A DNA stretch of 64,000 nucleotides from Microthyrium microscopicum (taxonomy: Eukaryota): the NCBI GenBank assembly GCA_010405405.1, contig MU004236.1, forward strand, positions 694,576 through 758,575, read 5' to 3'. Position 1 is the stretch's first letter. Each line of letters opens with the position of its first letter. A program made the translations under genes and the position numbers. Positions 15,198 through 64,000 of the stretch are shown in pieces. The notes under the pieces are model-generated. The model saw only the letters and a program-made list of their open reading frames with translations. It made no database searches and was not told the DNA's origin.

Positions 15198-15639
15198 ATA
15201 CTTTTTATAATTATAGTAATTATATTTAAAAAGTTATTAATAGAAATTAAAGAATAAAAAATATATTTATCTTTAAACAATTATAACTTAATTAACTTTT
15301 AAGATATAAAAATAATAAAAACATATCTAGATAGAGCTTAACAAGCTCTAAATAGTAATATAAAAATTATACCTTAAAGTTACCTATTTGGGTTACGATG
15401 TCTCTAATAACTACGATAAATTTTAAATAACTACAATAGATTTTAAATAACTATAATAGATTTTCGATGTATTTAAAATAACTACGATAAGTTTAAAATA
15501 ATTAGAATAACTAGAATTATTTAATACTTTATCCGATATATATCTAATGCGCATCTAATGTCTTTAAAATAACTAAAATAACCGTTTTACCGTTAGATAC
15601 GTAGTCCAATTTGCGATACATAATAATTTTTTTACGATG
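15198..15639. repeat. Right part of a TIR-bounded repeat unit (copy 1; left part presumably in the gap)
   Basis: Near-identical to 19568-20009 (offset 4370); ends ataataatttttttacgatg; subterminal ~20-bp repeats of type taactacgatagattttaaa. Confidence 0.85.
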
Positions 15640-19135: not shown

Positions 19136-20009
19136 CATTGTGAAAAAATTATTATTAATTTGAGCTATCTAATAGCACTAATAATAGCTATAACTATTAT
19201 ACGTAGTAGGTCATCTAAGGAGTTAGAAATAACTTTAAAATAACTATGATAACCTACGATAACCTAAAGATTAATAAATTAGGTAAAAGGATTTTACTAA
19301 AGTTCTTAAGTCTAATAACTAATTAACTAATTTAGCTATGCGCCTAGAAGATCTTGCTATAGGCTAAAATATAGGGTTTAGTACCTTTGGTTTAATCTAG
19401 AAATAAAAAGGTTAAAAAACTATAGAGTTAGTAAGGATTCTAGAAATAAATAAAAAAAGGAACATTAAAGTCTAAAAAACGTTTTTAGGCTGCAACTAGT
19501 AACTACTTAATAATAAATTCTAATTTAAATTATAACTTACTTATCTAAATAAGGGCTATCTAATGGTATACTTTTTATAATTATAGTAATTATATTTAAA
19601 AAGTTATTAATAGAAATTAAAGAATAAAAAATATATTTATCTTTAAACAATTATAACTTAATCAACTTTTAAGATATAAAAATAATAAAAACATATCTAG
19701 ATAGAGCTTAACGAGCTCTAAATAGTAATATAAAAATTATACCTTAAAGTTGCCTATTTAGGTTATAATGTCTTTAATAACTACGATAAATTTTAAATAA
19801 CTATAATAGATTTTAAATAACTACGATAGATTTTTAATATATTTAAAATAACTATAATGAGTTTAAAATAATTAGAATAACTAGAATTATTTAGTACTTT
19901 ATCTAATGTATATCTAATGCGTATCTAATGTCTTTAAAATAACTAAAATAACCGTTTTACCGTTAGATACGTAGTCCAATTTGCAATGCATAATAATTTT
20001 TTCACGATG
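19136..20009. mobile_element. 874-bp TIR-bounded non-coding element (copy 2; MITE-like or terminal module of a DNA transposon)
   Basis: Left end cattgtgaaaaaattattat is the reverse complement (1 mismatch) of right end ataataattttttcacgatg; subterminal short repeats; no ORF. Confidence 0.8.
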
Positions 20010-20351
20010 AAGGTTCTCTCGTTACTTCCTAAGGATTTAAATAGGTATTATAAATAATAAAGTAATAAAAAGAAGTATAAGTTGCCATAGAGGAGAATAA
20101 ATAAAGTAAAGTACTTCCTAACCCTACTTTAAAAAAGTAGTAGCTTTAAATAGTAGTTCTAACTTTAGTAATAATTATAACTTTAGAAGTAATATTATAA
20201 GTTAATCTATAACCTAAACGTTAAGTTTTAATACTAAAACTAGTATATAGTAATAGCTAGAATTTAGGAGATTATAATAATATAGTTTATAAAGAATTTA
20301 CGTATAGAATAATAAAATAATAAAGGTATATTAAAATACTAGGCTTATAAC

Positions 20352-20646
20352 TAACAAAATATAGTCTATATAGCTTAGGAAATATAAAATTAGTAAAGAA
20401 AATATTAAAGAATCTAATTAACTAACTACTATAATAACTATAGTATTTATATTCTATTAAAGATATAAAATATATCTTCTTAGAGCTTAGAATTTAGGCT
20501 ATAATAAAAGCAAAAGTAATATATAGAAAGGGGTAGAAAAGGCAAAAAGATATAATAGCTAATAGAAGCTAAATTTTGGTGTTTCTACTTCCTGATCCTA
20601 GATTAGGACTAGCGCGGATCTAGGGTTTGGAACGAACCTTCTGTCA
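20352..20646 (-). repeat. 5' LTR of the copia element
   Basis: taacaa...cttctgtca followed by TSD ctttg. Confidence 0.9.
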
Positions 20647-22941: not shown

Positions 22942-25379
22942 TCAGAATAGCTCATACTGCACTTCTCTGCCACCGTTGAAATAGAAGGCTGAAGCTTCTA
23001 CTCCAGACATCAGTCCTATCCGCTTTCGTTGGTTTTTCTTCGTTGTTGAGCTGGGAAACAAAACCAGTGCGTATGCTTGGCGACCCATCGGACCCCGGTA
23101 TTGCTGCGGTGTGCCATGAGGACCCTCACGAGAATATGTTCGTGAGCCAAGAGGACCAGTAGTGCAGAGAAGCAAGCATTCGAGAAAAAGAGGCTCAGTG
23201 CCAAAGTTTTCGTCCAACATATACTCTGCAACATCGTCATCGAAGTAATCAAAGTTGATCTTGCCGATTTCATACTGCCAGTATGGAGTCATGTGGCTTT
23301 TGAACCGTTTCTTTTTGAGGTCCCAAATACTAACATCATAGCAGGATCTTACATGTGGCGATCCTGGATTATCATGCTCTTCGAGATTTGACGATGAACC
23401 GGGCTTTCTCGTCCAGGTAGGCACCAGTACCATCCGTGACCTGCCACGTAGCACCAGTGGCTTGTCTTCCTGCAGCGTATCCAGAGGAGAGATATCTGCA
23501 TCAGGTCTGCTTTCGTTAATCTGGTCAGGATCCGACTGTGCGTCGTCTGATGGCTCTCCTTCAGATCGTTCTCTGAGCTTATTGACATTACCGAAATCGT
23601 CTGGCTCTGGCCAACTAAGGAGCTCAATTTCACGACTTGGTTCATCGTCTTTTGTCACTACGTTTCCCATGTAACGAATCATTTGAAGACCTGCGTAAGG
23701 GGGAAAAGTCACTGCGCCATCGTAGTAAAGCCAACTATAAGTTGGATATAAAAACAGCTGATTGTTTGAGTATAGTCTGCCATATTTGTCGGCCATCTCG
23801 GCCGCGTTCCTTTGGTGCTTCGAGTACTTGTCTGCCTTCCAAGCCAAGTCAATGTGTAAAGTCTCGGTCCATAAACCGCAGAGGTAGGTCCCACGCTCCG
23901 GTCGCTCGTAGGCATTGCGGATCGCATGAATAGCCCCGACTTTGTCGTTCAAGTCTCCTAAGGTGCGTTGAGAGTAATTTGACACTAGCCAAGGCCATGA
24001 ATCTCGAGCTGTTACAGTGTCATGCCCTAAAACTCGTTAGTGGAAGTTTTCGCAGTATCGATACAACGGTCATAGACTACTATGGGGTTTTTTTGTTCCT
24101 GACAGACCGGATGTAGGAGTCTACCTGTAACGCAAAGTGTTCAAGTGGATGACTTACCAGATGTATCCATCAGCTCCATCAGTTTTGTGTGCCAGAAATA
24201 GTCTCTCGGTGTCGGACCACCAGTGCTTAGTGTAGTTGTCTTGCATTTCCAATATGGCTGGACATTCGAGAAGAATATAATTCTTTTGGACAGCATCATC
24301 TCTTGAAAAGTCCAGCCGCGTTTATGAAGTGGTTCGTAATCCAGAGTCCACCTGTTAGGATACGATCCTCCGAGACGGCTCATTTTCATGCTCGATGGGG
24401 ACTTTCCATCATGTGAGTTTAACACATCAAAATATAAACTCGAATCTCCTGGGCGAAGGAAGTTTTGCCCACATCCTGAGGTATTACTGGCCGCAATCGT
24501 CAATTGAGCATTAGAATAAATGTATCCCATTTTCTTGATTTCTTCCTTTTTTGACAGTGTGTCGTCCTGAACGATACATAATGCATCGATCCATAAATAC
24601 GGAATCTCAAGTTTTCGACTCACAAGTATTGCATCTTGAATAGCTTTTGGCAATGTCCATACTGATATGCCTTCTGTGTGGTCCTGGAGATTGTCTAATG
24701 TTGTTGTGACCTGCTGATCCGTGGCAGAATTGCCCCAGCAATAACTCAAAGCTGTATAGCGGATATCGTCAGAGAGCAATGCGATTTCCACAAGCTGTAC
24801 TGAATGATTGGCGGTTGCATCCAGCTTCAGTAGTCTTCTAGGCATTACAGCTTGCCCATTCGATTTGACATGACAATTCTCATGCTCGGCATCGCAGATC
24901 GTAATCCAACTTTTCATGATTGAAAATGAGCTATCAGATATTGTGTCGGACAATACTGGTCGATCAGGTATGAAAGTAGCGGCCTCAGTGCCTTTCGGTA
25001 ACAAGATCAGCGCATGTATCAAAGAAGTAAAAGCCTGACACTGCTTACCTTGTTCTGCTACGATTTCGATGTAGTTCCAATCTCCAGTCTTGAAGGAGGG
25101 AGCAGTTAGTTTCAAGGTGTTCTCAACATGCGCTTTGGATGCTTTTGAAGAACCGAGAGATAGACGAATCTCAAAAGCATCAGGGTCTATTGTTCTGAAA
25201 TGATCAAGCAGTGAACTGAATATCGACCTTTTCCTCTCTCCTCTACGAAAGAACTCTGAAATCTGGTGACAGAAGGGGCAGCTACTGGATTCAAGATGCT
25301 TTCGACTGCCCCTATACACGCGTTTTGGATAATGTTGCTCCAATATCTCGCGGCAAGGCTGGCAAATGCTTGAGTTCAT
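22942..25379 (-). CDS. HET-domain protein; introns near 25020, 24140 and 24050
   Basis: PRRLL, YTALSYCWG, LPKAIQDAI..YLWIDALCIVQDD, MGYIYSNA, PLHKRGWTFQE; C-terminal part NYSQRTL..DK..AI..YLCGLW..DLAW..PTYSW. Confidence 0.9.
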
Positions 25380-26141
25380 GATGGGTTGTGGTGGCCACGT
25401 TCACATACGCTGGAGATGATGGTTTGCATACGTTTTCGAGACGATAAGCTGCTGGTAAAATCTGTCAGGCTCTTGTCAGGAGTAGCCATTGTTGATGTTA
25501 CGCAGCCGCTGAAAGCGAAAGCAGCCAATGATCCATAGCCAAGAACTCAGCCACCAAGTCTTTCGATTGTGAAGGTCGATTGCCTTGATGAGTGCCGGCA
25601 AGGCGCAACAAGAGCCGACAAGAGCCATGATCGGTTCTGCGCTCTTTGAGAGCGGTCAAGTCTAGGATTCAACAGCATTTGGCGAATGCCATATATATTC
25701 CTGAGGTCATTAGAAGCCCCCACGGCGATTACTTAAATACTTGCTTGGAGAAAGCTTGAAGTGCGCATCTCTACATCCTGAACACAACCACAAGCGGCAG
25801 GCATCACGGGCGAGACTGAACGCCTCTCTACGATTCATGCTATTGAAACGAAATGGCACATAAGCAATTGAAAGATGAAGGACAAAAGTAAGCTTCCTTA
25901 AAGAATCAAGAGATGAAGTCAAGTCCTGGCGCAATCTCATTGGTCAGCGTGCCACGCGACTTATCCCTGTCAGATCGTGAAGCTCTTTTGGCTCTCGCAT
26001 CAAAATGAATCAACCCAGTCTCAACTTCCCAGTTCCAACAACTCCATACACCATAAACATTCCAATCACCACAATCACGAACGCCAAACTTCCCCCTAAC
26101 CTCCTCTCCACCACCCTCAATCTCGACCCCCCAAACCCAAC

Positions 26142-27288: not shown

Positions 27289-29165
27289 CTACCGAACTGT
27301 TCGCTCAATCTCTTGCACCACGCTCTGTGTCACATCTCGAGTTCCGGACGATCCACCCAAATCTCTAGTCTGCACATTGTTAGCAACAGATCAATTGTAG
27401 ATGTTAGCTCTCACGAAATGCGATAGCTGAAATCGCAACTGAGGGCAGCGTAACAACATGCTCGGGTACGAAATGAACTTACTTTAACTCCCCATTCTGT
27501 CGCATTTTCAAAGCATCTCAGCAAGTGATCTGCAGCAGTCTGTTCCCCTAGCCATCTAAGCATTTCAGCCGCAGCCCACATGGCGCCAATTGGGTTGGCT
27601 ATGCCTTTACCAGCCAGATCAGGCCGGCTGGGCATGATAGGTTCAAAAGTGCTGGGGTTCTGGCGAGTAGGATCCAAATTTGAAGAACATGCTATTCCCA
27701 AACTTCCACTCAATGTGGATGCCAAGCTCGCAATAACATCAGAATGAAGATTCGTAGCCACTATGGTATCCAGAGAATGAGGATCCATTGTCATTCTCTC
27801 GATCATAGCATCAACTTGCATCAAATCGGCTTCTACATCAGCATAATCTTTGGCTATTTCTGTAAATATGGTGTCCCCTGTAAAAATTAGGATTAGGTTA
27901 CTGCCTGATATGATGGAAACTTACAGAATACCATTCCCCATCGTTGCATATTGCTTTTGGTTACTACGGTCAGCTTTTTCCGTGGACGAGCCTTTGCAGT
28001 CTCAAAAGCAAATCGAAAGATTCGCTCAGTAGCATGCCGCGTGAAAATGGTAACCTCAGTCGCCACGCCGAACGCAGCTTTTGGATGGGTTACACCACCT
28101 TGACCAGAGTATTCTCCTTCGGAGTTTTCACCGATGACCACCCAATCAAGATCCATTCTATCGATTGTACGAAGTGGAGAAGTTATACCGCGTAAGATAC
28201 GAATTGGACGGATGTTGATGAATTGTTTGAGCTCTTGACGCATATGAACTCGCAGTCCCCATATGGAAAGATGTTCTTGTACGTCTATTAAATAAGTCAG
28301 TTACTATTTGGATGATGTCAGTTAAGGTTAGCTTACCGTTCACTCCAACAGCTCCTAGGAATATAGCATCAAACTTTTTCAATCGCTCCATGGCGTCTGG
28401 TGGCATAAATAGACCGTGTGTCTTGTATGATTCAGAGCTCCAATCAAAGGTCTCGAATTGGACCTCAAATTTTTTGGTCGCAGTTGATAGTTTCTGGATG
28501 ACGCTGACAGCGGCCTCAGTAATATCAATGCCAATGCCATCGCCAGGAATGAGAGCAATCTTATGGACCTTCATCTTTTTTCTAGCACTTGCTGGAGTCT
28601 TTTCAACCAAAGGTCCATGATTGTGGTTGGGGTGCTTGATCTTGAGATTCCAAACGCTCGAGTTAGGAGCTTTTTGAATCAAGATCTGGAACATGCAACC
28701 TGTGCTTCGACTCGTCCGCTCGCGGATTGTACCTCGTGGTTGATATTGACCATGTCGGTCGCAATGGTAATAGTATCGTGTCTTAGCTACGTCCTTACCA
28801 TCAGGCTTGGATCGCTTGAGAGACATTCCATACCCATGTTCGCGAGCAAAGGTCATCATAGCATTGATTGCTTGCTCGGAGCTCATATAGGTCAGCTCGG
28901 GAGGTGCAGGCAATGGGTGATGCGGCGGCGTAGCCACCTGGGGACTGCCTTGTTGTGCATGTTGACTTGGAAGGGAATTGGAGACCAATGGCGTAGTCTG
29001 AAGGGAGCTTGACGCGAGGGAGGATAGTTGGTTGTGATGGACAGGTGTTAGGGAGGCAGCATGGTTGTGGACGTCGTCCATGTCCAGGAACCCACTGGCT
29101 ATGCGATCATCAATGTTGCCAGAATGGTGGTGACCCGCATTCGAGATTCCAGAGGGGCCGTCCAT
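27289..29165 (-). CDS. Fusion protein: low-complexity N-terminus, FAR1/MULE-type zinc DNA-binding domain, and tartrate dehydrogenase-like (IPMDH/IDH family) domain; exons 29165-28337, 28284-27925, 27877-27483, 27369-27289
   Basis: FAREHGYGMSLKRS..YYHCDRHG..SRSTGCMF..W..HNH runs in the same exon into KIALIPGDGIG; then NIRP, ENSEGEY, TKSN, VDAM, ATNL, FEPI, GIANPIGA, TRDLGG. All three introns are gtaag(c/t)..ag. Confidence 0.85.
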
Positions 29166-29987
29166 GATGGGTAAAATAGCAAATTTGGGGGTTGTAGAGG
29201 TTTGAGTTGTTTGGATTTGCGGTGGTGGAGAAAGAGCACCGGGGGTTGGCTCTATGCCCGTTTTAGTCGTCGCCTAAAGTGCAGACTGCGATTGAGATCA
29301 CCTCAACTCTATCTTTAGTTTTTGCCTTGGATGAAATCTGTTTTGCTTGAGAATGAGCAGTTTCTCGATAATTGATGTGTTCTTGGTGATTTAAAAATTT
29401 CAAGAGATTTTATTCGTGCTTGGTTGAGAAAGGTGAATGGATGGGGGAGAATATTGAGCGTAGCAGTGCTGGGACTGGGCAACGACTATATCCGTAGAGA
29501 GGTGAAGGAAGGAAGGAGCGAGCCCCCTTTTGGTAGGGTCGACAAAGCTAGCTTACTTATCATCCTCCCCTGGGCTCCAACTAGCGCTGTTTCCGTTGTT
29601 GTTGACATCAAATTCGAAGATCTTAATGCTCGTAACAGGTATCACGATCTAGGGAGTACAAATGAGATAATTATAAGCTAGAGAGAAGATACTACGAATA
29701 TGGAATAAACAAGCTCCAGAGTAATTTTCAATTGTACAGCTCATAGGCATATCTAATGTACGCGATGTGCATTGCAACTCTTATTGTGCTTCTTATCTTC
29801 TCCACACTCGTATCCTCTAGCAGTATGTTATACAAATCTCGTTATTCGCATGGCGACTGACCATGTTAAAGTTTGCTGGTTGCCCCTTCCTACTATGATC
29901 GTCCAGGACATTGGTGGTATGCGGCCATATGTTGGCAGCTGGTCATGATTTCAGATATTTCCGTCGTCCAGGCATCTAGCCAAATAT

Positions 29988-36135: not shown

Positions 36136-38464
36136 ATGCTATCACGTTCGCTACTGGGCATTTTCGCCTTGCCACTCATTTCTGCTGTTACTTTTGATAT
36201 TGACTCAGTCAACCCAAAACTCGCCAAACGTGCTCAAGTTTGTGAGTCTTCTGTGTGAATTTTGAAATCATCAAAGTGCCTGTTGGTGATTCTCTAAGTC
36301 ACTGTTCGGTCAGACTGCGGCAGGTTGAACTCTTGGGAGATCCATAGGCGTTGGCCAACAATGTACGTGCTATAATGATCATATACTGACAAGCTTCCAG
36401 GTGGCTCCAAAGGCTACGACAAAAGCACCAATGCTTATTTCGGGTCGACCACCGCTTCACTTAGGACTGCCAGTGCTTGTGGAGCTCACTGCCTAGCTGA
36501 CAGTAAATGCCAATCTTATGCTGTTGGCAGCAATAACTGTCTACATTATACCGTCGCAGTGTAGGTTCGGCGCATATTGGGGATGACTTGGGATAACTTT
36601 GCGATACGTGTTGACTGATAATAGGACGGGGAACTTGAATGCAAACACGGCAAGCCCCTATGCCTTCTACGACCGTAGCTGCGCTGGGAGCAGCGCCTCC
36701 AGCTCCATTTTTGTGACCTCGAGCTCACGCGCCGTGACGTCTATCCCAGCATCATCTTCATCTGTGCCAGCTTCCTCTTCTGCGCCAGCTTCTTCGTCTG
36801 CGCCAGTTTCTTCGTCGTCTGCGCCAGCTTCTTCATCATCAACTCCAGCATCTTCAGCATCATCTGCATTGTCGCAGCAGTCGTCGTCGGTCACTTCCAC
36901 TATCAGCAGCGCAGCTACATCTTCCCGCTCGACAGTATCAAGCTCAGCTTCAAGTGCACCGATTCCGACTTGCAACGCTGCTGGATATGACACAAATACT
37001 CCACAGTCTTTCAAAGATTCATCCAGCGCTGCGTACCGCAGTCTTGCTGGATGCTCCGGCTTTTGCAAGGCTACGAGTGGATGCGTAAGCTTTGCTTACA
37101 GTAGTTCCATTTGCTACTTGTACAACAAGCCTCTGGCCGCAAATTTCAAGGCCGATGCCAGTTCACCTTATCGCTTCTACGACCTTTCTTGCGTTACTGT
37201 ATCGTCCAGTAGCTCTTCATTCGTTACTTCCACGATCACTTCAAGCGCGACTTCTTCTGTGCTGTCTAGCTCTGCATCCAGTTCTGCCGTCGTGTCTAGC
37301 TCTGATATCGCAAGCTCGTCCTTCAGTTCAGGTAAGAACTCTACTTTCACAGTCACCCAGTCGTTTGTTCGACGGAGTCCTATGATGAGGTCGCGCGAAG
37401 TGGCTCCCATCGCGATACATGGCTTGCGCAAAACACTTCTATCATACGAGCCTTACTCTATCAAAACTTACCACTAACGGTTATAGATGTCTCAAGCACC
37501 GCTTCCTCTTCAGCAGTCTCCTCTTCTGCATCATCCTCATCTGATACTAGCAGTTCTGTTACTAGCTCAGCGGTGTCATCTAGCTCAGATGTGCCGTCTA
37601 GCTCATCTACTGTTGTTTCTTCCAGTAGTATAGTAAGCGCCACAGCCCCTACTTATACTGCAACCATTAGAGTCAAATCTACGGATGGCGCTAGCGACTA
37701 TGGATATCTGTTGCCCGCATCAGGCTCATTCTCACATATTGGATCATTCACCCAAGATCCGGCCGCGGCACTTCAAGTCAGGTTCGTCGTAGACACAACA
37801 ACCGGCTTAAGCACACAAGGAAATCTTGTAGCGCTGAATCCCGGCTCCAACACTGATATTCCAGACATTGGTGGCATTGTTGGCGTCAACAACGATAGCA
37901 ATGATCTCGGTCCAGGTAAGTCATCTCCCAGCTTAGTTTACTAGCTAAAAACGTACCTTTATATGATAGAAGCTAACAAATTCAGGTTCTGCCAAGTATG
38001 AAATGTAGATCCACGTGCATTAACACTCTTACTGATTATCTGTAGCTATCTTTTCCTGGGTCAATCAGCTGCCAGTAAGTGTTACCTGAGCTTCCCGACA
38101 CTTGTTCATTTAATTACATCTAACCTTGATTAGCGCCGGCAGGAAGTCCGCCAGCAGCAGTCCATAACTCCTATCCAACGGTGGAGGATAGCGAGACGTC
38201 TATGGTAAGTCATCCATTCTCTCCAATGTCATTAAACTTCACTCGAAATTGAGTACTGACAAAACAATCTAGTGGAGTGCAGATTCAGCAACCGGCGCTT
38301 TGACGCCCACTTGGATCAATACAAACGGCATTCATACTGTTACATCCTTGGTTCTCGTTCCTGGCAGTAGCGCCATCGTTTTGGTTGGCGACGTGGGAAT
38401 ATTCGAAGCTACCTACTCAACAGGCACACAAGTATCTTTCACTCTCACTAATATATCTTCGTAA
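36136..38464 (+). CDS. Secreted multi-exon protein with two PAN/apple-like Cys domains, Ser-rich linkers and a C-terminal beta-rich domain
   Basis: Signal MLSRSLLGIFALPLISA, KR site, two repeats of C..GYD..C...C.....C.S(F/Y)A.....C..Y......A...SPY.FYD.SC, ASSSAP repeats, several GT..AG introns, stop at 38462-38464. Confidence 0.7.
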
Positions 38465-51533: not shown

Positions 51534-53498
51534 ATGGCCCACGGCCCTGACGATAAGACGGGAGGCGTCAGCTATGATAACTATCATACGGACAGCAATA
51601 ATGATATCGACGGTCCTGAGTTCACTCCGGCGGAAGAGAAGAAGATATGGCGCAGAGTGGATTTGAGACTGGTGGTACTTATCGGATTCATGTATTGTGT
51701 GTCGTTGATGGATCGCGCAAACTTGAGTAATGCCAGTATGTTTGAGTCGAACATTTGTGTGAAGACTGAAGCTAAGCAAGCTCTTTTCTAGAGGTCGCTG
51801 GAATGGAGTCGGACCCCAGAGACCCCAAGTTCAAGCACGAGCAAGGACTTAACTTGATAGGCTTCCGATATGTAAGTTATTCGAATCAATGACAGTTAAC
51901 CTTGAGTTCTTGAGTGCTAATCCGAGGCCATAGAACATCATGTCTCTCGTTTTCTTTCCACCATACATTATTTTTCAAATCCCTTCCACTGTTATCGTAC
52001 GAGCACTGGGCCCACGACTTCATCTGGGAACGATCACATTGCTATGGGGGAGCGTTATGGTCGCCATGGCTTTCGTTAACGATTGGCAAGTTATGGCAGG
52101 AATGAGAGTGCTACTCGGAATCTTAGAGGCAGGGTTCTTCCCAAGCTGCGTGTACTTGTTGAGTACTTGGTATACGAGATGTATGGAGCGGTCTAAGCAA
52201 AAAGCCTCAGTGCTGACGAGTTACAGATGAGATGGGTAAACGGTATTCGCTATTCTACATCCTGGGATGCGTTGCCTCCGCATTTGCAGGTTTACTAGCT
52301 TATGGGGTAAGTAGAGGCTTGATATTGAGTGAGTTGACATTCAGGACTAACACTTCACAGATCATGAGTCTGCAAGGAAAGGCAAATATGGCCGCCTGGA
52401 GATGGATCTTTGTAGGTTATATGGAATGATAAGAGCCAGTTAAGCCAGCTTACTAACAGCTTGCGCAGCTTATAGAAGGACTAGTATGACCTTGCCTCCA
52501 GTTTGATCTTCCAAGAAGAATCTAACTTTCGCTAGCTCACCATTTTTATGGCTCTCCTGGGCTATGCTCTGATTGTTGGCTTTCCCGATCAGTGGAAACC
52601 AAGGTATTTTTTGTCACTGCACGACTCTACAGGCTTTTCTGACCATTTCAACAGCTGGCACTTCCTCAGTGAACGGGAAGTCAAATATGTCCTCAGCAAG
52701 GTGAATGAAGACCGTGGAGATGCAGTGGTCGAGCCCTTTTCCATGGGAGTATATTTGCGCTCCGCTCTTGACTGGAAAATATGGTGCTATGCGATGATCT
52801 TTTTCAACAACACGACAGTCACCTACGGTTTGGCTTACTTCTTACCCGATATTCTTCGTAAATCGTTGCATTATGACCAGAAAATGAGCCAGATCATGGG
52901 CGCTCCGCCGTATATCGCTGCTGGAGTCGTTATGTACCTCACAGGCTGGATTGGAGACAAGTATCAGATTCGTGGGCCGATCATCATCTTCAACATGATT
53001 CTTTCCCTCATTGGGATTCCCCTACTTGGCTGGACCACAAATGGCTCAGTCAGATATTTTGGGATCTTCCTTCTCGCTGCCGGTGTCAACGCAAACATTC
53101 CAGTTACTATGACATACCAGGTAAGATAAAATTCTGCAACGTAGGAGAACTTTGCACTGACGTATCTTTTCTCAGGCAAACAATATTCGCGGTCAGTGGA
53201 AACGCGCCTTTTGCAGTGCGACCCTCGTCGGATTCGGAGGCATCGGTGGAATTGCAGGCTCTCTTGTCTTCCGGGCACAGGACGCTCCGGCATACAAGCC
53301 GGGCCTTTTCGCGTGCATGGCATGCTGTATTCTCAACATAGTAATAGTGACCATTCTCACTCTCAATTTTACGAAGCGCAATCGTGACGCGCGGGCAGGC
53401 AAAAAGTTCATTGAAGGAGCAGATGTAAGTCAAACTCAATCTTTGCCAGTGCTGAACTAATCTTGTCATTTTAGGATGGATTCTTATACACGATATGA
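51534..53498 (+). CDS. MFS transporter, anion:cation symporter (Dal5/Tna1-like) family; many introns including a 15-nt micro-exon (~52470-52484)
   Basis: RRVDLRL..SLMDRANLSNA, FFPPYIIFQIPS, R..LGILEAGFFP..YLLSTWY, AWRWIF|LIEG, APPY, NNIRGQWKRA, GFLYTI*. Confidence 0.92.
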
Positions 53499-54170: not shown

Positions 54171-55342
54171 TTTAGAATTATGCTCCATTTCACAAAATTT
54201 GAATATGTTTAGCTAATTCAATGCCACAAAGCTGACACGGTCTTCGTGTTCATTGATCAAATTCATTGCTAATTTGACGACCTTCAAAGACGTAATATTT
54301 CGTACCTTGTCATTCCATAATTACCCTGCTACAGTTTGTTGAAATTTAGCTTCCAATGCGTGCCACACAACTCCGTGCAAGCCTCTACTCGAGTTCAAAC
54401 ACGTAACCTCCGACTTGCTTAACTTTCCACCACCCATTTTGAACCGTCAGCGTAGTTTTGACGTAGCCAGTAACTTCAATAGTAAGGCTGATCTAGGCCA
54501 CATCCTCCAATAGGCCGTTCTACAGCCTTTTGACACGATTGACGCGCTTGGCGTTGCTCAGTATAGCGCCCCCTCCCTTCAGTACGCGCCGTGGACTGTC
54601 ATGACTGGCTCAATCGACCCCAGCACCAAAGCCCAGTTTTGCAACGCCGAAAAGGAGCGAGTGCCATCGAACTGAAGCCTACTGGCATTACTATTCTCAT
54701 TCAGCCAAGAGAGTGAGGTTTCGAAGACCCCTCTCGTGGCTCTTCACCCGCCAGGAGCCCAGCTCAGGGGCTTGTTGGCCTTCCATTGCATATCTTTTCT
54801 ACAGATTACCTGTTCCAGTATCCCATCGAGCGTCCGGATATTATTGATCTGATCTACGGATTTTCTACAAGGTTCAGTACGAAGGCTCAAGGCTTTTGTG
54901 ATGGCTGAGTTGCAAAGTGGCAGCGCATGTTTCTAGCGCTTGACCACAGGGAGCTATCAAAAGCTCGTCTTCTTGCACTCACAGTTTCAGAATCCCAACA
55001 TGTCCACGCCCGTCCTAGGAAGCCGTACTTGGCAAGGCTTGTATGTTTCTTGAATTTTCCACTGTCATTAACCGCAGAGTAAAAAGCCTCTTGCTATATG
55101 TTAGGCCTCATCGTCGTGGAAACATTTGGTCATGTCGGGGTAGTTGTCATCCTACATTGGTACAACTGTATTCATTCTTTTCCTCTTCTACTAGGCGTGA
55201 TATTCATTCATTCTTGCTGGCCAAGCTATATTCAGTCTTTTAAACCTCAAATATCGAAGCTTGTTCGGTTTCATTTCAACGGGCCGGCAGATCAAGTGCA
55301 TAAACCTCCTAAACCATATTGAACAAAACATATACAAACATC

Positions 55343-56400
55343 ATGAAGACTATCTTCCTGGCTTCAGCACTGTTACCCATCCTAGCGTTTGCTAGAGATA
55401 ACCCATTCGATCCAAAAACCAGTAAAGGCACGTTCGGTCCTTTCACACCGGCTAAGAAAGCACTCAAATCCGCAACCGGTGCTCCAGCAACAGTCGACGA
55501 TGATACAGCTCAAGCCCTCCAGACCGCATGCGACAACTGGACCGCAGACACGGGAAAAGTGTCCAATTTCCAAAACATTGGCTCATCCACTGCATCTGGC
55601 TCCCAGTTCACGAATGCCGCCAACATCGCCTATAAGGCTGAAGTCGACGAACTAACCCACAAAGCCAGTAAGTCTCACCCTCTTCCTCCTCCTTCAAGTC
55701 ACTGTCTAACAATACCCTAGTTCTCGACAAGATAATCGGCAAAGACCCAACCGTCTCCATCGCCAACCAAACCCTCACCAACGGTGTCTTCCAAAGCGTA
55801 GTCGACAACCTCCAAATCATGAGCATCCAAGGCAAATCGCGCGTAAACCTTATCGACACGATAAACAGTGTACGCTGCACGCAGATTCTACCATCCATTG
55901 ATGCCTACTGTGCCGTGGTCGCGCGCACAATTGGCGGAGGAACACAAGCGAAGACAGCAGTTAGGCCTTCCGCTTGTGCAGCGATTGTCGCCGCAGACAC
56001 GGATCCAGCAGACTATCCAAACGTGCCCAATGTCCCTGGAGGAACAGCGCTGGCATCTGCGCCGTCTTCGAGTGCCAGTGCCAGTGCTGGCGGCAATGGG
56101 GGAAGTAGTTCGAATGGGGGTAATGCAGGAAGCAGCACTGGGACGACAGGAGGAGGACACCATTCGCATAACAACCGGAAACGATATTTCGCTGGAACGG
56201 AATATATTGCAAGAGAAAAGACTCCTAATCGTAAGCGATATTTCGCTGGAACGGAATATATTGCGAAAGAGAAGAATACCAACCGCAAACGCTACTTCGC
56301 AGGTACGGAATATATTGCCAAAGAGAAGAATTCTAACCGGAAGCGATACTTCAAAGGCAGCGACTATATCGCGAATGAACCTAGCGAGGTTTCTCATTAG
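55343..56400 (+). CDS. Secreted protein with Cys-containing domain and C-terminal Kex2-processed peptide repeats (KEP / candidate RiPP precursor); intron 55668-55720
   Basis: Signal MKTIFLASALLPILAFA; ~200-aa region with 4 Cys; Gly/Ser linker; four NRKR-YF(AGTE/KGSD)YIA units. Confidence 0.85.
56173..56397 (+). repeat. Coding tandem repeat, 54-bp (18-aa) unit x4
   Basis: Units start at 56173, 56227, 56281 and 56335; NRKR is encoded aac-cgg-aaa-cga, aat-cgt-aag-cga, aac-cgc-aaa-cgc, aac-cgg-aag-cga. Confidence 0.95.
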
Positions 56401-56771
56401 ATATGTAGCAATTGCACTGTTTTATCATGTTATCAAGACTGCATTTTGATATGTTTGCAGATTCGTTCTCTGAATGTATGTAAGTCGATTTGGATCACTA
56501 GAACAAAGCATAGTCCGCCCTCGGTAGAGCTATCAATACTTCGAAAATGCATTTCAGTAACAGAAATGATGAAATAGGAAGTATACACTGCATTTGAACT
56601 ATATCCCGATGAGCACCAACTTCCCCAGCATTCGCAATGCGATCCAAGCCATGCTTTTGTATCCATTATCCCATATGTCACTAGGAGAAAACGTTTCGCC
56701 AAACAAACATGCAAAAGTTTCGAGGACGTATTCACTGCGCAATGTCGCAAATGCAATAAAACTCATTACAA

Positions 56772-59370
56772 TCATGCTCCCGTAACGGCCTCGACGCGCT
56801 TCAGAAACTCACGTACCCGTCCCACATCATTCTCTGGCTCACTCTCCACCGCCTGTACGAGCTGTGGTAACACTGGATCGACTTCATCCTCAGCAACACC
56901 AGTACATAATGAGACAACTTTACGGTACTTGCTTTCAAGCTCAGTATCGCGCGCCTTGAGCGACATGAGGTGCGCGTTAAGACTCGCAAGCAGCTGGTTA
57001 TACGTGCCAATCTGCGAATTCAGATTCTGCGGGTCTGGGGTATCAGCCGGATCTTGGAGGTCGAACGCAGAAGAGTCAGGGAGGAGGTAGTCACTATCAG
57101 CATCACCGACAGAGAGCGAAGGAATGCCGCCACGCGCATTGCCAGAGTTGCCGATACGATCGCGGATTTCACCAACAGCACGTCGCAGGTTCTGGATTCG
57201 TTGCTTGCGTTCCTGGCGGCCTTGCAGTTCGGCAGTCTGAGCGTCGACTTGGGTGGTGAGTACTTTCTGTTTGCTGGAGAGATCACGAATTTCATGGGTG
57301 GATTTGTCAATTCGGTCTTGTAGGAGGCGAAGTTCGGTACTGAATTGGGATGAGGTTTGTGTCATGGATGTAGTGAGAGCTGGATGAAGTTGTTAGTCAG
57401 GTCATAATTATAGGCTTAGGAAACATACTTGGCATGAGCTCCTGGGAAACTTCTTCTGCTTTGCTTGGGACCTTGGACTTGGGACTTTCGGCTATCCTTT
57501 GAGATAAGCCTTCCGAGCTCTCTGGGTCTATTGGCTCAACACCAAAGTCGACAGGCCGTAATCCTTTATGATTCGGAATGGTTGGGTCAGCTTGCACTTC
57601 GACGAGCTGTCGGATTATACTGCTATTCCCAATTCTTGCCACTAGATTTAGCGCGGTGTTTCCTGCCATATCTCTGGCATTGACCATCTCGCTCATAAAA
57701 CGCATGAGACCGATAGGCGCTTTTGGTTGGCTACTATTGCCACCATCGAAAGAAGAGCTGGAGTTGTCATTGTTCGTTCTTCGTACAAGGAACTCGAGAA
57801 GTGCTTCCAGATAGTATTTTGAGCTTGTGTTTCGACCACGAATGCCAGATGCTAAAGCAATGTGATGCAGGATTGTTCGTCCTTTCGAGTCCCTGATCTC
57901 TATAAGAGAATTCAGGAGCTCGAGAAGGTCAGGAAAACAAGTATGATCAAGGCAATTGTTCACTTGGACGGCGGCCATCAAAGGGGTTTCACCAGCGATA
58001 TTTCCTCGGAAGATACTGGCTCCCTTGGCAATAAGCAGCTTCATTAGAGGAATCCTTGCGAGCGTTGCAGCCCAGTGGAGAGCGGTGTTTGCCGATTGAT
58101 CTAAAGGTAGATCGAGATCAGGACCCGAAAGATGTAAGATAGCCGGATGATTGGTATAATCAGTTCGATGGAGATCGGCAAAGAGATCGAGAAGAAGCGA
58201 TTGTTTCTCTTCACTAGACTTGTCTGAGGGATGAGGTAGTGGTGGGTAAGCAATTGGGACATCGCCGTCCGAAGCCATGGCTTGATCTGAAGGCCTGTAG
58301 AGGAAAGATTCGTTTGCTTCAGTGGGCGACCCATCACGAATGAAAGATTGTGATTCTCCATTCATGTGTGAATAATCAGCATCTGGTGTGCTTGGTCTCA
58401 TTCGTTTCCTTGGTGGTTCTTGAGAATCCATGCCTCGATCGAGTTGTTGGGTGATGTATGCAGAATCCGTACCATTGAAACTACGCTCATGATGTAACCC
58501 AGGATTACTCCGTTGGCTTGAAGGCTGCTGAGAATTCTGCATTGATTCCTGACTATTAGGGAAAGACCGCGCAGCGGAGCCGGGACGTCTTGGAGCGCTT
58601 GCCGGCCTTTGGGGAGGAGTATTCAGTCGCGCCGCTCGATTCATAGCAGATATCGCATTTGATGCTGCGGAGGAGAGGTTGGAGAAGAATGTTCCAGTCC
58701 CTTGCGGCCCTTGAGGCTGGCGACCGTCCTGAGTCTGAGTATATAGCCGTTTACGATTGGCAGCCATTGCCTGTTCTTTCGTTGGAGTATCGACACCATT
58801 TCCAGGTTGACCACTTCCATCGGCACTTAGATCATAGTCCAGGAGGGGTCGCAAGAGTTCTTCAACACCATACTGTCGGCAGAATTCGCGACCTCGGCGA
58901 TAATTTATCCAGGTTCCTTGATATTTGCCATAGCCACCTTGCACTTTTTCATGTTCACCGGTGAGGATCTCTTTCTCTAGAACTTTTGTCCTCTTTCCCT
59001 TGTCAACGCCCGCGACCTTTAATATTTGAGTGGCATTGAGCCACGAGTCGGATCTGCGTCTCATTACAACAACTCTGTTGATAACCATTTCATATACTTG
59101 TACTCCGGAGTAAACAGCCTAGTGGGAATTTAGTGCATGCCATCAACAAGCAGTGTTAACCAGTTCGCTTACAGTATAAATTTGAGGAGATGGAGCCATT
59201 TGCTGATGCGCTCCTCCATTCATATCAGGAAAACTGCTGCGATAGCTGGACATGGCGCTCTGTTGGGAGCCATACATCATCTGGCCATTTCCATCTTGGG
59301 AGGATGTAAAGGAGGCAACATTACGAGGATCATATGGAGGAATAGACATTGTCGGAGCGGTCCCCTGCAT
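56772..59370 (-). CDS. SWI6: APSES/KilA-N plus ankyrin cell-cycle transcription factor (Swi6/Cdc10-like MBF/SBF subunit); introns ~59119-59170 and ~57381-57428
   Basis: IYT|AVYSGVQVYEM..VMRRRSDSWLNATQILKVAG..EKVQGGYGKYQGTWI; ankyrin repeats NTALHWAA, ETPLM, RTILHH, NTALN; C-terminal coiled coil KYRKVVSLC. The start codon is tentative. Confidence 0.85.
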
Positions 59371-60231
59371 TGCGACCGCTGGAGTATGGTAATGGTGAAG
59401 AGGCAGCAAAGGTAGTTGACTAGACGCAAAGGTGTGCGGACTGCATGGGTGTTTGATATTAGGTGATGGCTACGAGCGCAAACTGGCAGAGAGAATGATA
59501 ATGCGAATTCCGACAGATGAGAGGATCGGACAGTGGAACAGCGTAGAACAGCGCAAATAATGTTGAACTTGAAGCGATTGGAAGAAAGAGATGGCGTCGC
59601 GCGTCTTCAGCTTCGGGCTTGAGACGCGTTTTCCAACTTTGCTCGGCCCCTCTTTCATTAATACAAAGCTAGCCCAGAGTAAGCAATCTTTAGCGAATTA
59701 AGATACATAAATTCTGAATAAGTAATTTCTGGGGTACTTTCCTTTACTCTGCTCGATAGACGATAATTTGCACCTTATCCTCGATTCCTCACCCTCTACT
59801 TCCTATCGACATCATCTTGGTCCAACTCTAGCCTGCCAGGCCACTCATTTCAGACGATAAATCCATCGACTACGATCTCTACCATAAGACTTCTCGACGG
59901 AGGAAGGCGTCCGTCGCATCGAGCGCTTTGCATACCTACAAGATTGTCGAATGCGAAGGTACTTAGCGCCTTGCTTTTTCAAAAGTCTAGAGGTCTGGGT
60001 AGATTGATGGAGGACCTCAGTGGCTCTCGTAGTTTGATACCAGGTATATCGCGTCAACAATCGCGTCATCGCAAGCTCAACGTCGCGGATAAGCTTCTCA
60101 AGATCCATTCTGTTGCTGGTGAGGAGCCATGAAGGTGTAAATGTGGGTATCATAATAATATTATCCGCATGATAAATCTGGTTTACGACTGCGCAAACTC
60201 CTGCTATGCTAATATTTCAGACAAAATGCGC

Positions 60232-61219
60232 TCAGTCAGCGTGAGGTCCATTTTCATGGTACTCTGATAACGTTCCCCTTTCTATTCTCCTCCTTTTCAA
60301 CCAGTGTCTAATGTTGTTGAAGTTTCGGCAAGTATGAGTTCCTCCATGAGCAATATACATCTGCTCTCCATTCATAACCGCGCCTTCTTGTTTATACAAT
60401 GGTATCGGAGTGAGGTCTCCATGGCACTCAACGACCTGTCGAACGTAGTCTAGACAATGTTCTTCATTGAATGTTAGCTGAATCGAGCGTCTCGTAGTTG
60501 GAGGACTTACCCATATGAACTTCCGAAAAATGTGGCGGAAATTGTGGTCCATCCTGATGCAGTTTTCCGATACTTGTGTAGTAGTCTTTGAACATGTTGA
60601 TTCTGAGCGCGTTCACACAATGTAAGCCGTGGACGACGCCGACAGCAGCAAAGTAGTTGCCAGACTTGTTCTCTCCTTTTATCTTGACAAAGTCTTCTCT
60701 GGCAAACGGTTTTGCTTCTTCGTCTGTAAGACTAAAGAACTCGTCTTTCAAGATGTTCGCCCAGTTCTTGTCGATTTCCGGATAGACGGCTGGATTCCCG
60801 AAATATCGAGGCTCATTAGCTGGTCTCTCGTACCAGAAGTCTTTCGCCGTGTTGTTCCAGACTATGCCACCGGAAAACACTTTTTGCTCGAAATCAATGT
60901 ATTGCCGTGCTTGTTCAAAGTCCGTCGCGAAGCCTGGCTTTTGCTCATTCACTTCAAGCTGTTTTGCTGCCAGATCAGTGAGAATCTTTTCCAGGTGCCA
61001 TAAGCGGAAGAGTAGAGCCAGGACGACGATTCCTAAGAGAAAACATGATGCGGCGGCGAAAAAGAAGAGATTTCGGAATCTATCTGATCTCGAATGGCTG
61101 TATAAATAGTGTCCTTCTCTTGTTGGCGTGTCCACTTCAGTGTCGCTCTGATCATCTTCGCTGAAGTCCTCCCTTATCACTCGTAACGGTTTGCTTTCTT
61201 CCATGTATCGTGGGCTCAT
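60232..61219 (-). CDS. DUF3328 / UstYa-like oxidase; intron 60462-60510
   Basis: N-terminal TM helix; PRYFG.P..EIDKNW; two HXXHC motifs, VHGLHCVNALR and spliced VHM|EHCLDYVRQVVECHGDLTP; HTCRNF..IR.W. Confidence 0.92.
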
Positions 61220-61780
61220 AATGTGCGCGGAGTGAGGACCTGTCAATCCAAGTTATGAACTTCGCTGTAATGTTGGCAAAACATGTGCCAGTGAAATGGT
61301 CATTGCGGGCGGAAACGAAAGGTGCCAAAATAGAGTTCGCGGAGGCGATTTCACCTGCTCTATCTATCTCTATATGAAACACCATTCTTCTATACTTTGT
61401 GGCTCCACAAGCTAGCTCGAATCACTCTACCCCAAGGTGATGCGCTTTAGGGTACAGCGGCGTGGGCTGTACATGGCCTTCTCTGAGATGGCTTTATATT
61501 GATCTATACCACAACCCCTATCAACGATCTTCAAAGATAACGGTTATGCCAAGGAGATCTTGATTTGCTTCTCCATCAATGAAGAATATAATCCTTGGTA
61601 TTCGAGATCTTTCCTTGGCTCACAGTGTTCTCATCAAGTGAGGAAAGTATGGTGGCTTACTAAGCACATATCGTCAAACAACTTCTGTCTGAGCTTCAGA
61701 AACTTGCATCTGATCTTTCGTTTCCTGTCAAATGCCACGACAGTGAACGCGCTCAAGCCTTTCTCCACTCAAATAAGCTT

Positions 61781-63088
61781 ATGCCTGCTGCGTTCAATGC
61801 TGCAGATCACGCACGTAAATGCCTCCAACTCTATCGTAGTCTCCTACGCGCCTGCTCCTATCTACCCGACTCGGTAGCCCGAAACCACATTCATCGTCAC
61901 ATAGTCTACCGCTTCCGAAACTACAATTCCCGCGCAAAGGTTCTCGTTGCTGTCGCTGCACAGTCAAGATCATGGAATGAACGAAAAGATGCCGAGGAGA
62001 CTCTTCAAACACGTTTGGGCAAGGCGCAAGCTTCGCTGAGGACTCTTGAGAAAGCCAATGCTGGAGGCTTGCTCTCCTTGCAGTATGTTCTGAGATGGGC
62101 ATATGGACGCGTTGGAAAGAGGAGATTTGAGCTTTTGAAGCCACTGCTGGAGCCAGATACAACGCCTGGAAATGGCAGTATTACAACCCGCCCAGCTCTG
62201 TCAGAGCCGCCCCAAAAACGAGGCTATGATTTGGCGATAGTTCCTATCTCGGATATATTCACGCCTCCAAAAGTGTCAAGGGAACACATTGTCTACGATA
62301 TCTCTCCGAAGTATAGCAAGCTAAGGGCCATTATTTTAGCTCAGGTCAACCTCGGCAAGCTGCTACCACACAGCGAGAGAGTGCTCAGGAGCTATTTGTT
62401 GAAGATCCCAACCAAGAACGAATGGAATCGTCCCATGCCACTTGTTAGGGTGAAAAATTTTGCCAACAAACATTATGCTTGGCTTCTGGAAAAGGTCCTC
62501 CCACCACTCCCTGACAAGGACTGGCTTTGGCTATACGAGTTGGCAACTGGAACTCGCAAATGGGAGGGCGTTCCAAAACGACGAAAGAGAGTTGTCGTTC
62601 AGCATCCAGAGAAATATAGCGCTCGGGATTTGGAGAGCATTCTGCACGTCGGCCGAGTACAGTCTCTTTCGCCAAGCGAACAGTCGACTCGTAGCCAATA
62701 CTCTACGGACGACGTTGAGAAAGTCCTTGGTCGCCTACCACAATCTTTGCACCATTTCGATTCCAAGGATACGTGGCTTGAAGATAGTCAGCTCTTTGAG
62801 CAATCCAAGAGCAACGTCTTGGAGGAGGAGCTCAATGTTGGTGGTCAATTTGCAGTGACAAGAAACTCTAGCGATGATCCTCACACCATCACTGAGCGAT
62901 ACATGAAAAGGCAACTGAAAGCGATACTGGTTGAATGTCCGAGGCTTAGCAAAGACAAACAGACAGGTGGATGGGAAGTTACTTCAGGTATCTTTGCCTC
63001 TAAAGAAGCACCGGATACTTCGACTTTGGCACCTCTTTTTGATATGATGGAGCTTGGCACAAGCGCGCGAGAATCTGTAGCTCGATAG
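61781..63088 (+). CDS. LYR-motif-containing hypothetical (probably mitochondrial) protein
   Basis: 435-aa ORF; LQLYRSLLRACSYLPD..HI..RFR; AYGRVGKRR.EL; N.W.RPMP. Confidence 0.75.
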   Translation: MPAAFNAADHARKCLQLYRSLLRACSYLPDSVARNHIHRHIVYRFRNYNSRAKVLVAVAAQSRSWNERKDAEETLQTRLGKAQASLRTLEKANAGGLLSLQYVLRWAYGRVGKRRFELLKPLLEPDTTPGNGSITTRPALSEPPQKRGYDLAIVPISDIFTPPKVSREHIVYDISPKYSKLRAIILAQVNLGKLLPHSERVLRSYLLKIPTKNEWNRPMPLVRVKNFANKHYAWLLEKVLPPLPDKDWLWLYELATGTRKWEGVPKRRKRVVVQHPEKYSARDLESILHVGRVQSLSPSEQSTRSQYSTDDVEKVLGRLPQSLHHFDSKDTWLEDSQLFEQSKSNVLEEELNVGGQFAVTRNSSDDPHTITERYMKRQLKAILVECPRLSKDKQTGGWEVTSGIFASKEAPDTSTLAPLFDMMELGTSARESVAR

Positions 63089-63319: not shown

Positions 63320-64000
63320 ATGTCCGACCAACCTATAATCCGCTTCGCAACAAAAGACGGTAGGCCGAGTCTCAACTCAGTACAATAACCATCTTACCTG
63401 TCTAGATGTCTCATCAATCCTCTTCTTGATCAAAGAGCTCGCTATTTTCGAGAATGCACTCGACTCCGTCGAAACTACTGAACAATCCCTTCTCGACACG
63501 CTCTCATTTCCAAACACCCCAGATGCAGTCAGCCTAAGCGATTTCAGCCCAGGCTTTGCTCGAACATTCTTGCTCATAGTGCCCAACTCCAACGTCACTG
63601 ATGTGCCCAAGGCACATGATGGCAGTGTTGCGGGCATGGCGCTCTTCTTCACCAACTACTCCACATGGCGAGGTAAGATTCCCCTGCACTAAATCACATT
63701 TCCTCACGACATGCAACGAATTCAAAAACAGCATATCTCCCTTCGCATTCGATGGCCGGTTTACCTTTTTACCAGGAAAAGAGCAAAGGGGCTTTTAGGC
63801 ATGCTGGCTTCAATCGTAATGGGTCCTGACACATTCCAGGTGCACCGGGAGTATATCTCGAAGACTTGTATGTGCGCCAGCAGTTCCGTCGTAAAGGACA
63901 TGCGCGTTTGCTGCTCGGTGCGCTGGCCAAGGAGACAATTAGGCTTGGAGGGAAACGCTTGGAGTGGAGTTGCTTGAATTGGAACGTCAATGCGTTGAAA
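63320..64000 (+). CDS. GNAT N-acetyltransferase (SSAT/Ats1-like); runs off the window
   Basis: IRFATKD|DV..IL.LIKELA.FE, GMALFFTNYSTWR|GAPGVYLEDLYVR..FRRKG..LL..LAKE..G.RLEWSCLNWN..A. Confidence 0.9.

Follow-up and report, generated by a model that had tools for sequence, protein, structure and literature searches.

In a 64,000-nt stretch of Microthyrium microscopicum DNA (hereafter called the window), two genes lie close together that resemble a small biosynthetic locus for a dikaritin-like ribosomally synthesized and posttranslationally modified peptide (RiPP): one encodes a secreted protein with a repetitive C-terminal tail (the repeat protein), and the other encodes an oxidase of the UstYa (DUF3328) family. 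By a modest measure, we favor the reading that the pair constitutes a two-gene RiPP locus with an unusual precursor, from which the protease Kex2 would free Tyr-containing peptides that the neighboring UstYa enzyme would cross-link. The evidence that carries this reading consists of the repeats themselves and the selection acting on them, the intact condition of the UstYa gene, and the proximity of the two genes, and it has to be weighed against the possibilities that the peptides are released unmodified or that the tail is never cleaved.

The source of the window is a dothideomycete, and both focal proteins are 100% identical to database entries of that species: the spliced exons reproduce exactly the repeat protein P0001 (BT63DRAFT_456013; 334 amino acids) and the UstYa protein P0092 (BT63DRAFT_479784; 312 amino acids). 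The two genes are convergent, with 3832 nt from stop to stop (60232-56400). The sole gene between them, which an earlier note on this DNA had called SWI6-like when it described a convergent pair 3.8 kb apart, is confirmed by Pfam to encode KilA-N/APSES and ankyrin domains; the UstYa gene is two genes along from the repeat gene.

The tail of the repeat protein is encoded by a tandem array with a 54-nt period (3.3 copies at 56173-56352, 82% matches, and a score of 227 in Tandem Repeats Finder), the only coding repeat of its kind among the 21 rows that this program returned for the window. In translation, units 1 to 3 have the form NRKRYFAGTEYIA(R/K)EK.., that is, 18 amino acids each, composed of N-R-K-R-Y-F-A-G-T-E-Y-I-A-(R/K)-E-K and two variable residues, and unit 4, NRKRYFKGSDYIANEPSEVSH (N-R-K-R-Y-F-K-G-S-D-Y-I-A-N-E-P-S-E-V-S-H), is degenerate and ends the protein. 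The repeats span residues 263 to 334, i.e., 72 of the 334 residues, and two Tyr residues per unit are kept in all four units. Each unit starts with N-R-K-R, which places a kexin (Lys-Arg, KR) site before each proposed core. The [KR]R sites at residues 262, 280, 298, and 316, all within the repeats, are the only ones in the whole protein, so that the folded domain farther upstream would survive Kex2.

Sequence differences among the repeat units are of a telling kind. Within the 13-codon core N-R-K-R-Y-F-A-G-T-E-Y-I-A, units 1 to 3 differ at 4, 6, and 8 codons, in every instance synonymously; the variable sites of this core are third codon positions without exception (8/8, all synonymous), and none of 200,000 simulated random placements of 8 substitutions came out as entirely synonymous. 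Over the full length of units 1 to 3, dN is 0.02 to 0.075, versus a dS that ranges from 0.8 to saturated. Because the differences in the core are only synonymous, selection must long have maintained the peptide sequence, kexin site included. The repeat peptide is under purifying selection, and this pattern speaks in favor of a peptide that is functional in its own right, not of an inert tail. The repeat is restricted in its distribution: comparison of the C-terminal 45 residues recovered it in none of the 90 relatives of the protein (see below), and a search with the repeat region only retrieved P0001 alone among 708 candidates (proteins of 123 to 394 amino acids), even at an E value of ≤10. 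A reading of the repeats as pheromones was dropped when the repeat-region search yielded no relative.

The UstYa gene product matches the Pfam family UstYa (PF11807) with an E value of 2e-32 and a score of 113 bits, where the cut-off is 25. It contains the motifs HGLHC (residues 197 to 201) and HMEHC (residues 235 to 239), the latter assembled across the splice junction, and a DUF3328/UstYa protein with two HXXHC motifs is given as the enzyme that defines the dikaritin class (PMC12048977). An N-terminal tail of about 50 amino acids leads into a hydrophobic run that extends to about residue 73 and whose most hydrophobic 19-residue window (residues 51 to 69) has a mean Kyte-Doolittle value of 2.72. 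Pfam, motif, and hydropathy results therefore all agree with the earlier description of an intact DUF3328/UstYa gene that has both HXXHC motifs and an N-terminal membrane anchor. In a 50-sequence UstYa alignment, the protein retains 11 of 11 invariant and 13 of 13 near-invariant columns, and because all of these columns are kept, it looks functional.

Relatives of the UstYa protein are numerous and distant. A word-indexed search returned a single protein besides the query itself, at 35% identity, and an exhaustive search returned 1610 cluster representatives at an E value of ≤0.001, 298 at ≤1e-10, and 8 at ≤1e-30; the best relative is 41% identical, and there is no close orthologue in the protein sets searched. 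Named relatives come from Penicillium, Aspergillus, Hymenoscyphus, Aulographum, Xylogone, Cercospora, Colletotrichum, and a lichen fungus. As judged from these comparisons, the gene is thus specific to its lineage, within a family that is large and evolves fast. Several of the relatives (P0096, P0100, P0112, and P0247) are labeled “Tat pathway signal sequence” or “Cyclochlorotine biosynthesis protein O,” and the UniRef label of the protein itself reads “Tat pathway signal se...”; such labels are annotation carry-overs with little functional meaning. A complex prediction that combined the UstYa luminal domain (residues 85 to 312) with the tail of the repeat protein (residues 255 to 334) scored 0.00 against a mark of 0.34 and, as run without controls, counts neither way.

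The greater part of the repeat protein belongs to a family of its own. A search with exon 2 recovered 91 proteins at an E value of ≤0.001, including P0001 itself; the 90 relatives (E values of 4e-45 to 4e-8) cover 16 to 65% of the query, and the part common to them is the N-terminal domain. Venturia inaequalis, Verruconis gallopava, and Tothia fuscella contribute to this set, as do a paralogue encoded on a different Microthyrium contig and numerous environmental records. When 39 sequences are aligned, a signal peptide is followed by a brief stretch rich in Pro and Asn and then by a domain of ~150 residues, in which 28 columns are invariant; past this domain, the tail is hypervariable. The N terminus of P0001 (MK, a hydrophobic run, and AFA) is conserved across the 39 homologues, and those from V. 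inaequalis are predicted to be secreted. From the same 39 sequences, AlphaFold2 predicts helices at residues 53 to 82, 86 to 114, 118 to 149, 152 to 179, and 193 to 200, the first four of them long, with a predicted local distance difference test score (pLDDT) of 91 to 98 for the block, and disorder from residue 222 on (pLDDT of <50). According to this model, residues ~20 to 210 form a conserved and confidently folded four-helix bundle, and P0001 is not a plain repeat protein.

Two of the relatives, P0018 and P0050, match the V. inaequalis proteins g24098 and g5313, which belong to family 43 of the effector candidates in the supplement of PMC9632046. The name of this family is given as “NA” in the effector-candidate list, and the table in that source assigns a four-helix-bundle fold to g24098, in agreement with our model of P0001. 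Other resources added little. Foldseek found 0 matches of the model in PDB at an E value of ≤0.001, the best hits being generic helical bundles; the Mp1p ligand-binding domain was rejected as a fold match (rank 5 with an E value of 1.2, not significant). Pfam assigned no family to either exon of the repeat protein at an E value of ≤0.01, and DUF7302, considered for the whole protein, was set aside as subthreshold (E value of 0.07). ESM Atlas offered only unnamed Ascomycota clusters, with a score of 0.87, below the level that counts. Database labels of the protein are “hypothetical” or, in UniRef, “Cell wall protein.”

A regularity was also seen at the C termini of the relatives. Among relatives P0002 to P0080, 16 of the 29 that have a tail of at least 90 amino acids end in a dibasic site followed by 4 to 10 residues, often including a conserved Phe, and many of these endings take the form RR-S-x-x-F-x-(A/V) or KR-(W/S)-H-P-R-L-F-x-V. 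A dibasic site followed by a short C terminus may serve the family at large as a conserved signal for processing or sorting, and it may be that the family generally sheds a short C-terminal peptide, which Microthyrium amplified. A further step, which we regard as possible and rather doubtful, is that the locus represents a new precursor architecture, in which the cores of a UstYa-dependent RiPP are a C-terminal appendage acquired and amplified by a conserved secreted four-helix-bundle protein from an effector-candidate family of Venturiales-like fungi, the dibasic C termini of the relatives being the ancestral single-copy form. A folded secreted protein and cross-linked peptides would in that case come from one gene.

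We compared the locus to published descriptions of dikaritin pathways. Kex2-processed repeat proteins (KEPs) have been defined by a signal peptide together with a minimum of 3 tandem repeats, each of at least 8 amino acids and none longer than 100 amino acids, between KR, KK, RK, or RR sites (Umemura 2020, PMC7329392), and P0001 falls within this formal definition. Nine putative dikaritin clusters have been reported in V. inaequalis by Rocafort et al. 2022 (PMC9632046) under a rule that calls for a DUF3328 protein with a tail of 34 to 58 amino acids, a transmembrane helix of 19 to 24 amino acids, and the tandem motif, situated no more than 10 genes from a repeat protein that has a signal peptide and kexin-separated repeats of at least 10 amino acids; a filter for in planta coexpression was added. 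The locus agrees with the sequence part of this rule in its tail, transmembrane helix, motifs, signal peptide, repeats, and distance. The earlier note had named a KEP together with a DUF3328 oxidase as the signature of dikaritin pathways, and the pair does conform to the sequence criteria of both surveys (PMC7329392, PMC9632046). Its wider claim of a dikaritin system is partly supported: the two-HXXHC UstYa enzyme, the signal peptide, the KR-separated repeats, the Tyr in the core, and the distance agree with it, but the protein is mostly a conserved folded domain and not a plain repeat precursor.

Proximity statistics point in the same direction. Of the 7878 KEPs in the survey of PMC7329392, 1758 (22%) have a DUF3328 gene no more than 15 genes away; the mean distance is 3.09 genes, and the distribution peaks at the adjacent position. 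Tyr is present in 65.6% of the repeats of DUF3328-linked KEPs versus 38.2% of those of unlinked KEPs (PMC7329392). With 9399 DUF3328 genes among the 14,491,621 proteins of 1461 strains in that source, the chance of finding such a gene within two genes on either side is ~0.26%, or ~1% if a genome carries 30 copies. The colocation favors a functional link, even with a low prior for so atypical a precursor, although this link between the repeat gene and the UstYa gene is an argument from proximity statistics and not a proof.

As a proxy for synteny, we searched Table S2 of PMC7329392 for KEPs whose accession numbers lie near those of UstYa relatives, on the assumption that accession order equals gene order (Cercospora berteroae has no rows in this table). 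In the cluster of P0115 (37% identity), the UstYa proteins KXH34551 of Colletotrichum simmondsii and KXH59243 of Colletotrichum nymphaeae each lie four accession numbers from a “type 50” KEP; these KEPs are flagged “DUF3328 in vicinity,” and the two UstYa proteins fall in one 90% cluster. The tally of 2 of 5 testable relatives, or 1 of 4 independent clusters, is about the base rate for the family and is uninformative.

Under the reading that we favor, the repeat protein would enter the endoplasmic reticulum by way of its signal peptide, and Kex2 in the Golgi would cut after each of the four Lys-Arg sites. The products would be the four-helix bundle with the linker still attached, three YFAGTEYIA(K/R)EK..N(RKR) peptides, and, from the C terminus, the peptide YFKGSDYIANEPSEVSH. 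A carboxypeptidase would trim the basic ends of these peptides. UstYa, as a type II membrane protein with its HXXHC domain facing the lumen of the compartment that holds the peptides, would modify them oxidatively, most likely by joining a Tyr side chain to some other residue in a cross-link, either ahead of the cleavage or following it, and the outcome would be secreted, modified peptides. These steps, from Kex2 cleavage and the action of UstYa on P0001 to the kind of cross-link formed, the limits of the cores, and any bioactivity, are what we infer for the locus, and the Y-F-A-G-T-E-Y core and Tyr-ether ring specifically, as put forward in the earlier note, are likewise putative.

Several observations weigh against a dikaritin-like locus. 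Described dikaritin precursors consist of a signal peptide followed by many repeats, and P0001 departs from the rule that a precursor is essentially a leader plus highly repeated cores, with its repeats amounting to 72 of 334 residues in 3+1 copies. Its N-terminal domain is, moreover, that of a family with at least 90 other secreted proteins, none of which has the repeat in its C-terminal 45 residues. The accessory genes of the original dikaritin definition (that of Ding et al., quoted in PMC12048977, which names a tyrosinase, a methyltransferase, several DUF3328 genes, and a peptidase or transporter, and from which later definitions drop these) are also missing: a Pfam scan that covered 57 of the 126 stop-to-stop open reading frames (ORFs) of at least 100 amino acids in the window (the longer, nonnested ones), along with seven focal pieces, detected one major facilitator superfamily (MFS) transporter and none of the following: tyrosinase, methyltransferase, P450, dedicated peptidase, or pathway regulator. 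The housekeeping-type gene between the pair counts on the same side, as the earlier note itself had cautioned, and a weak test of the upstream regions (54343-55342 versus 61220-61780) found shared words at k = 8 to 12 no more often than in shuffled controls. From the literature, only 31.8% of DUF3328 genes are near a KEP (PMC7329392), and UstYa proteins also act outside RiPP pathways, in the nonribosomal and polyketide pathways of cyclochlorotine, astins, and atpenin (PMC12048977). Family 43 has no family name in the effector-candidate list of PMC9632046 and did not surface in dikaritin text searches of its supplements, a scope to which the list of ten putative dikaritin precursors did not belong, and three UstYa relatives (KNG84751 of Aspergillus nomius, PIA93889 of Cercospora beticola, and TDZ14575 of Colletotrichum orbiculare) have no listed KEP within ~30 accession numbers.

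In a first alternative, Kex2 releases three or four unmodified, linear peptides of 15 to 17 amino acids (with a signaling, pheromone-like, or surface-active role) together with the four-helix protein, and UstYa is an unrelated neighbor whose substrate is some other one encoded elsewhere. Linear KEP peptides are common, and 78% of KEPs have no DUF3328 gene nearby (PMC7329392); the dibasic sites with 4 to 10 terminal residues in 16 of the 29 long-tailed relatives suggest a peptide release that is old and independent of UstYa, and no relative in the family is known to lie beside a UstYa gene. The lack of accessory genes among the scanned ORFs and of shared promoter words also accords with this alternative. 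We nonetheless think it rather unlikely: it leaves the presence of a UstYa gene within two genes to a chance of ~0.3 to 1%, the peptides are rich in Tyr, as those of linked KEPs tend to be, and the tail and the UstYa gene are both lineage specific, as would be expected of a coevolving pair.

In a second alternative, which strikes us as improbable, the repeat protein is an ordinary secreted or cell wall four-helix protein whose basic, Tyr-containing tail is never cleaved and serves a structural, adhesive, or wall-binding role, UstYa again being unrelated. The UniRef label “Cell wall protein” would fit such a protein, as would the character of the tails in the family, which are hypervariable, disordered, and often rich in Lys and Arg, and the status of the V. 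inaequalis members as effector candidates with long, low-complexity tails (PMC9632046). Low-complexity tails, however, do not normally combine strict amino acid conservation with saturated synonymous divergence, and the conserved block contains N-R-K-R, a canonical kexin site, with KR occurring nowhere else in the protein. If the link between the two genes is false, what we describe is the kind of false positive that proximity-based RiPP mining routinely produces and, as such, a useful caution.

The coordinates of the two genes and of the gene that separates them are collected in Table 1.

Table 1. Features of the putative RiPP locus, in positions of the window
Feature	Position	Strand	Content and basis
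Repeat-protein gene, whole	55343-56400	+	Two exons; ATG at 55343, stop at 56398-56400; read from sequence
Repeat-protein exon 1	55343..55667	+	Residues 1-108 and first base of codon 109; ORF, donor GTAAGT at 55668
Signal peptide MKTIFLASALLPILAFA	55343-55393	+	Hydropathy; hydrophobic N terminus conserved in 39-sequence alignment
Repeat-protein intron	55668..55720	+	53 nt, GT..AG; read from sequence; removal yields P0001
Repeat-protein exon 2, including stop	55721..56400	+	Second half of four-helix domain, Gly/Ser-rich linker, and repeats; one unbroken frame
Four-helix-bundle domain, ~residues 53-200	55499..55995 (intron included)	+	AlphaFold2 prediction, alignment
Disordered Gly/Ser/Asn-rich linker, ~residues 222-259	56059..56172	+	pLDDT <50 from residue 222; hypervariable among homologues
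Four repeat units	56173-56226, 56227-56280, 56281-56334, 56335-56397	+	Tandem Repeats Finder, unit translations
KR codons of repeat units	56179-84, 56233-38, 56287-92, 56341-46	+	Proposed core peptide after each KR
UstYa gene, whole	61219-60232	-	Two exons, intact
UstYa exon 1	60511..61219	-	Cytosolic tail (residues 1-50), transmembrane helix (~61001-61069), HGLHC (60617-60631)
UstYa intron	60462..60510	-	49 nt, GTAAGT..AG, GCTAAC branch-like site; removal yields P0092
UstYa exon 2, including stop	60232..60461	-	Second motif, HMEHC, across splice junction (60454-60517)
MBP1/SWI4/SWI6-type gene (KilA-N/APSES and ankyrin)	56772..59370	-	Pfam KilA-N (E value of 4.3e-7) and Ank (E value of 1.4e-11); context, outside the proposed system

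Elsewhere in the window, Pfam matches fall mostly on genes without an obvious role in secondary metabolism: MIOS, a carboxylesterase, a heterokaryon incompatibility (HET) protein, an S26 peptidase, isocitrate dehydrogenase, the alpha subunit of the electron transfer flavoprotein (ETF-alpha), a SWIRM/Myb protein, GH47, a lysophospholipase, Avl9, Thg1, a Ras GTPase, the one MFS protein, and a LYR-motif protein. Two neighbors mentioned by the earlier note were recovered, namely, the MFS transporter (51534-53498), with PF07690 on two exons, and a GNAT, present as a fragment at 63830-64000 (PF00583, E value of 1.4e-7); that note allowed that both might be unrelated to the locus, and, in line with its reservation, we found nothing that ties either of them to the pair. 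The LYR-motif gene (LYRM2-like/Complex1_LYR; 61781-63088, plus strand) is divergent from the UstYa gene; their start codons are only 561 nt apart, which gives the UstYa gene and this housekeeping-type gene a common promoter region.

More remote parts of the window have peculiarities of their own. An AT-rich block at 12000-20500 (GC content of 17 to 24%, versus ~47% elsewhere) includes an assembly gap of N at 14724-15197 and several short tandem arrays, two of which (15406-15464 and 19776-19839) have one 20-nt unit in common; the block looks like a repeat or transposon remnant degraded by repeat-induced point mutation, and the six “ORFs” at 14675-15280 are artifacts of the N run. The HET-domain ORF lies at 24144-25400 on the minus strand. 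At 28161-29273 (minus strand), one frame combines a match to the FAR1 DNA-binding domain with the first part of an isocitrate/isopropylmalate dehydrogenase, probably because of a neighboring gene or of read-through of an intron. The ORF at 36587-37474 (plus strand) has no Pfam match and contains an imperfect coding repeat of 18 to 21 nt in 5.5 copies (36746-36855); it probably encodes a low-complexity, Ser/Ala-rich protein.

With respect to novelty, Microthyrium microscopicum and RiPP terms never appeared together among the matches listed in our literature search, and Microthyrium has 0 occurrences in the tables of PMC7329392. Thousands of KEP-DUF3328 pairs are already catalogued, such that one more candidate is, by itself, of modest interest. 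If our favored reading is true, however, the locus would provide a Tyr-containing peptide scaffold not described before, from an order that has hardly been studied (Microthyriales), and it would indicate that an otherwise ordinary folded, secreted protein can carry the cores of a RiPP in its tail. Genes such as that for P0001 tend to be overlooked by repeat-only mining rules and by annotation pipelines. The favored reading, if true, would also raise the question of whether processing extends to the C termini, with their dibasic site and short peptide, of the whole family, a family that the apple scab fungus expresses in planta.

Among characterized systems, the closest in organization is asperipin-2a of Aspergillus flavus, whose cluster is described as having one DUF3328 gene and neither tyrosinase nor methyltransferase (PMC7329392, PMC12048977, PMC9233826). 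The locus resembles it in this respect, which bears out the earlier remark that the asperipin-2a cluster is similarly small; clusters with a single UstYa gene and without those two enzymes are known. The cores of asperipin-2a contain Tyr and its cross-links arise from Tyr side chains, and the units of the Microthyrium tail contain Tyr as well, but the asperipin-2a precursor is a repetitive protein, whereas P0001 is a folded domain with a short repeat tail, and asperipin-2a shows no sequence similarity to this tail. The nine V. inaequalis clusters, from a related class of fungus, follow the same sequence rule as the locus but have also been filtered for coexpression in planta (PMC9632046). KEPs in the sense of Umemura 2020 and Le Marquer 2019 share their definition with P0001, in which, however, the repeats form a small extension at the C-terminal end of a conserved domain.

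The clusters for ustiloxin, phomopsin, and victorin, the last of which places the dikaritin class within the Dothideomycetes, are like the locus in having a signal peptide, repeated cores flanked by Kex2 sites, and a UstYa-family oxidase with two HXXHC motifs. As described, these clusters contain several UstY genes and/or a tyrosinase, a methyltransferase, a peptidase, or other tailoring genes, together with many cores; the Microthyrium locus, in contrast, has one UstYa gene, no accessory genes among the scanned ORFs of the window, and 3+1 copies of the core. A single gene for both a folded protein and peptides to be cut from it has parallels beyond the dikaritins that bear no sequence relation to P0001. 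Hum3 and Rep1 of Ustilago maydis unite a folded module and Kex2-released repeats in one gene, with the peptides of Hum3 acting as unmodified wall repellents, and in the borosins, the core peptide is fused to a modifying enzyme domain, whereas the domain fused to the tail in P0001 is a four-helix bundle. The locus would, then, work like a minimal dikaritin locus of the asperipin type, the new element being the fusion of its cores to a conserved, folded, secreted domain.

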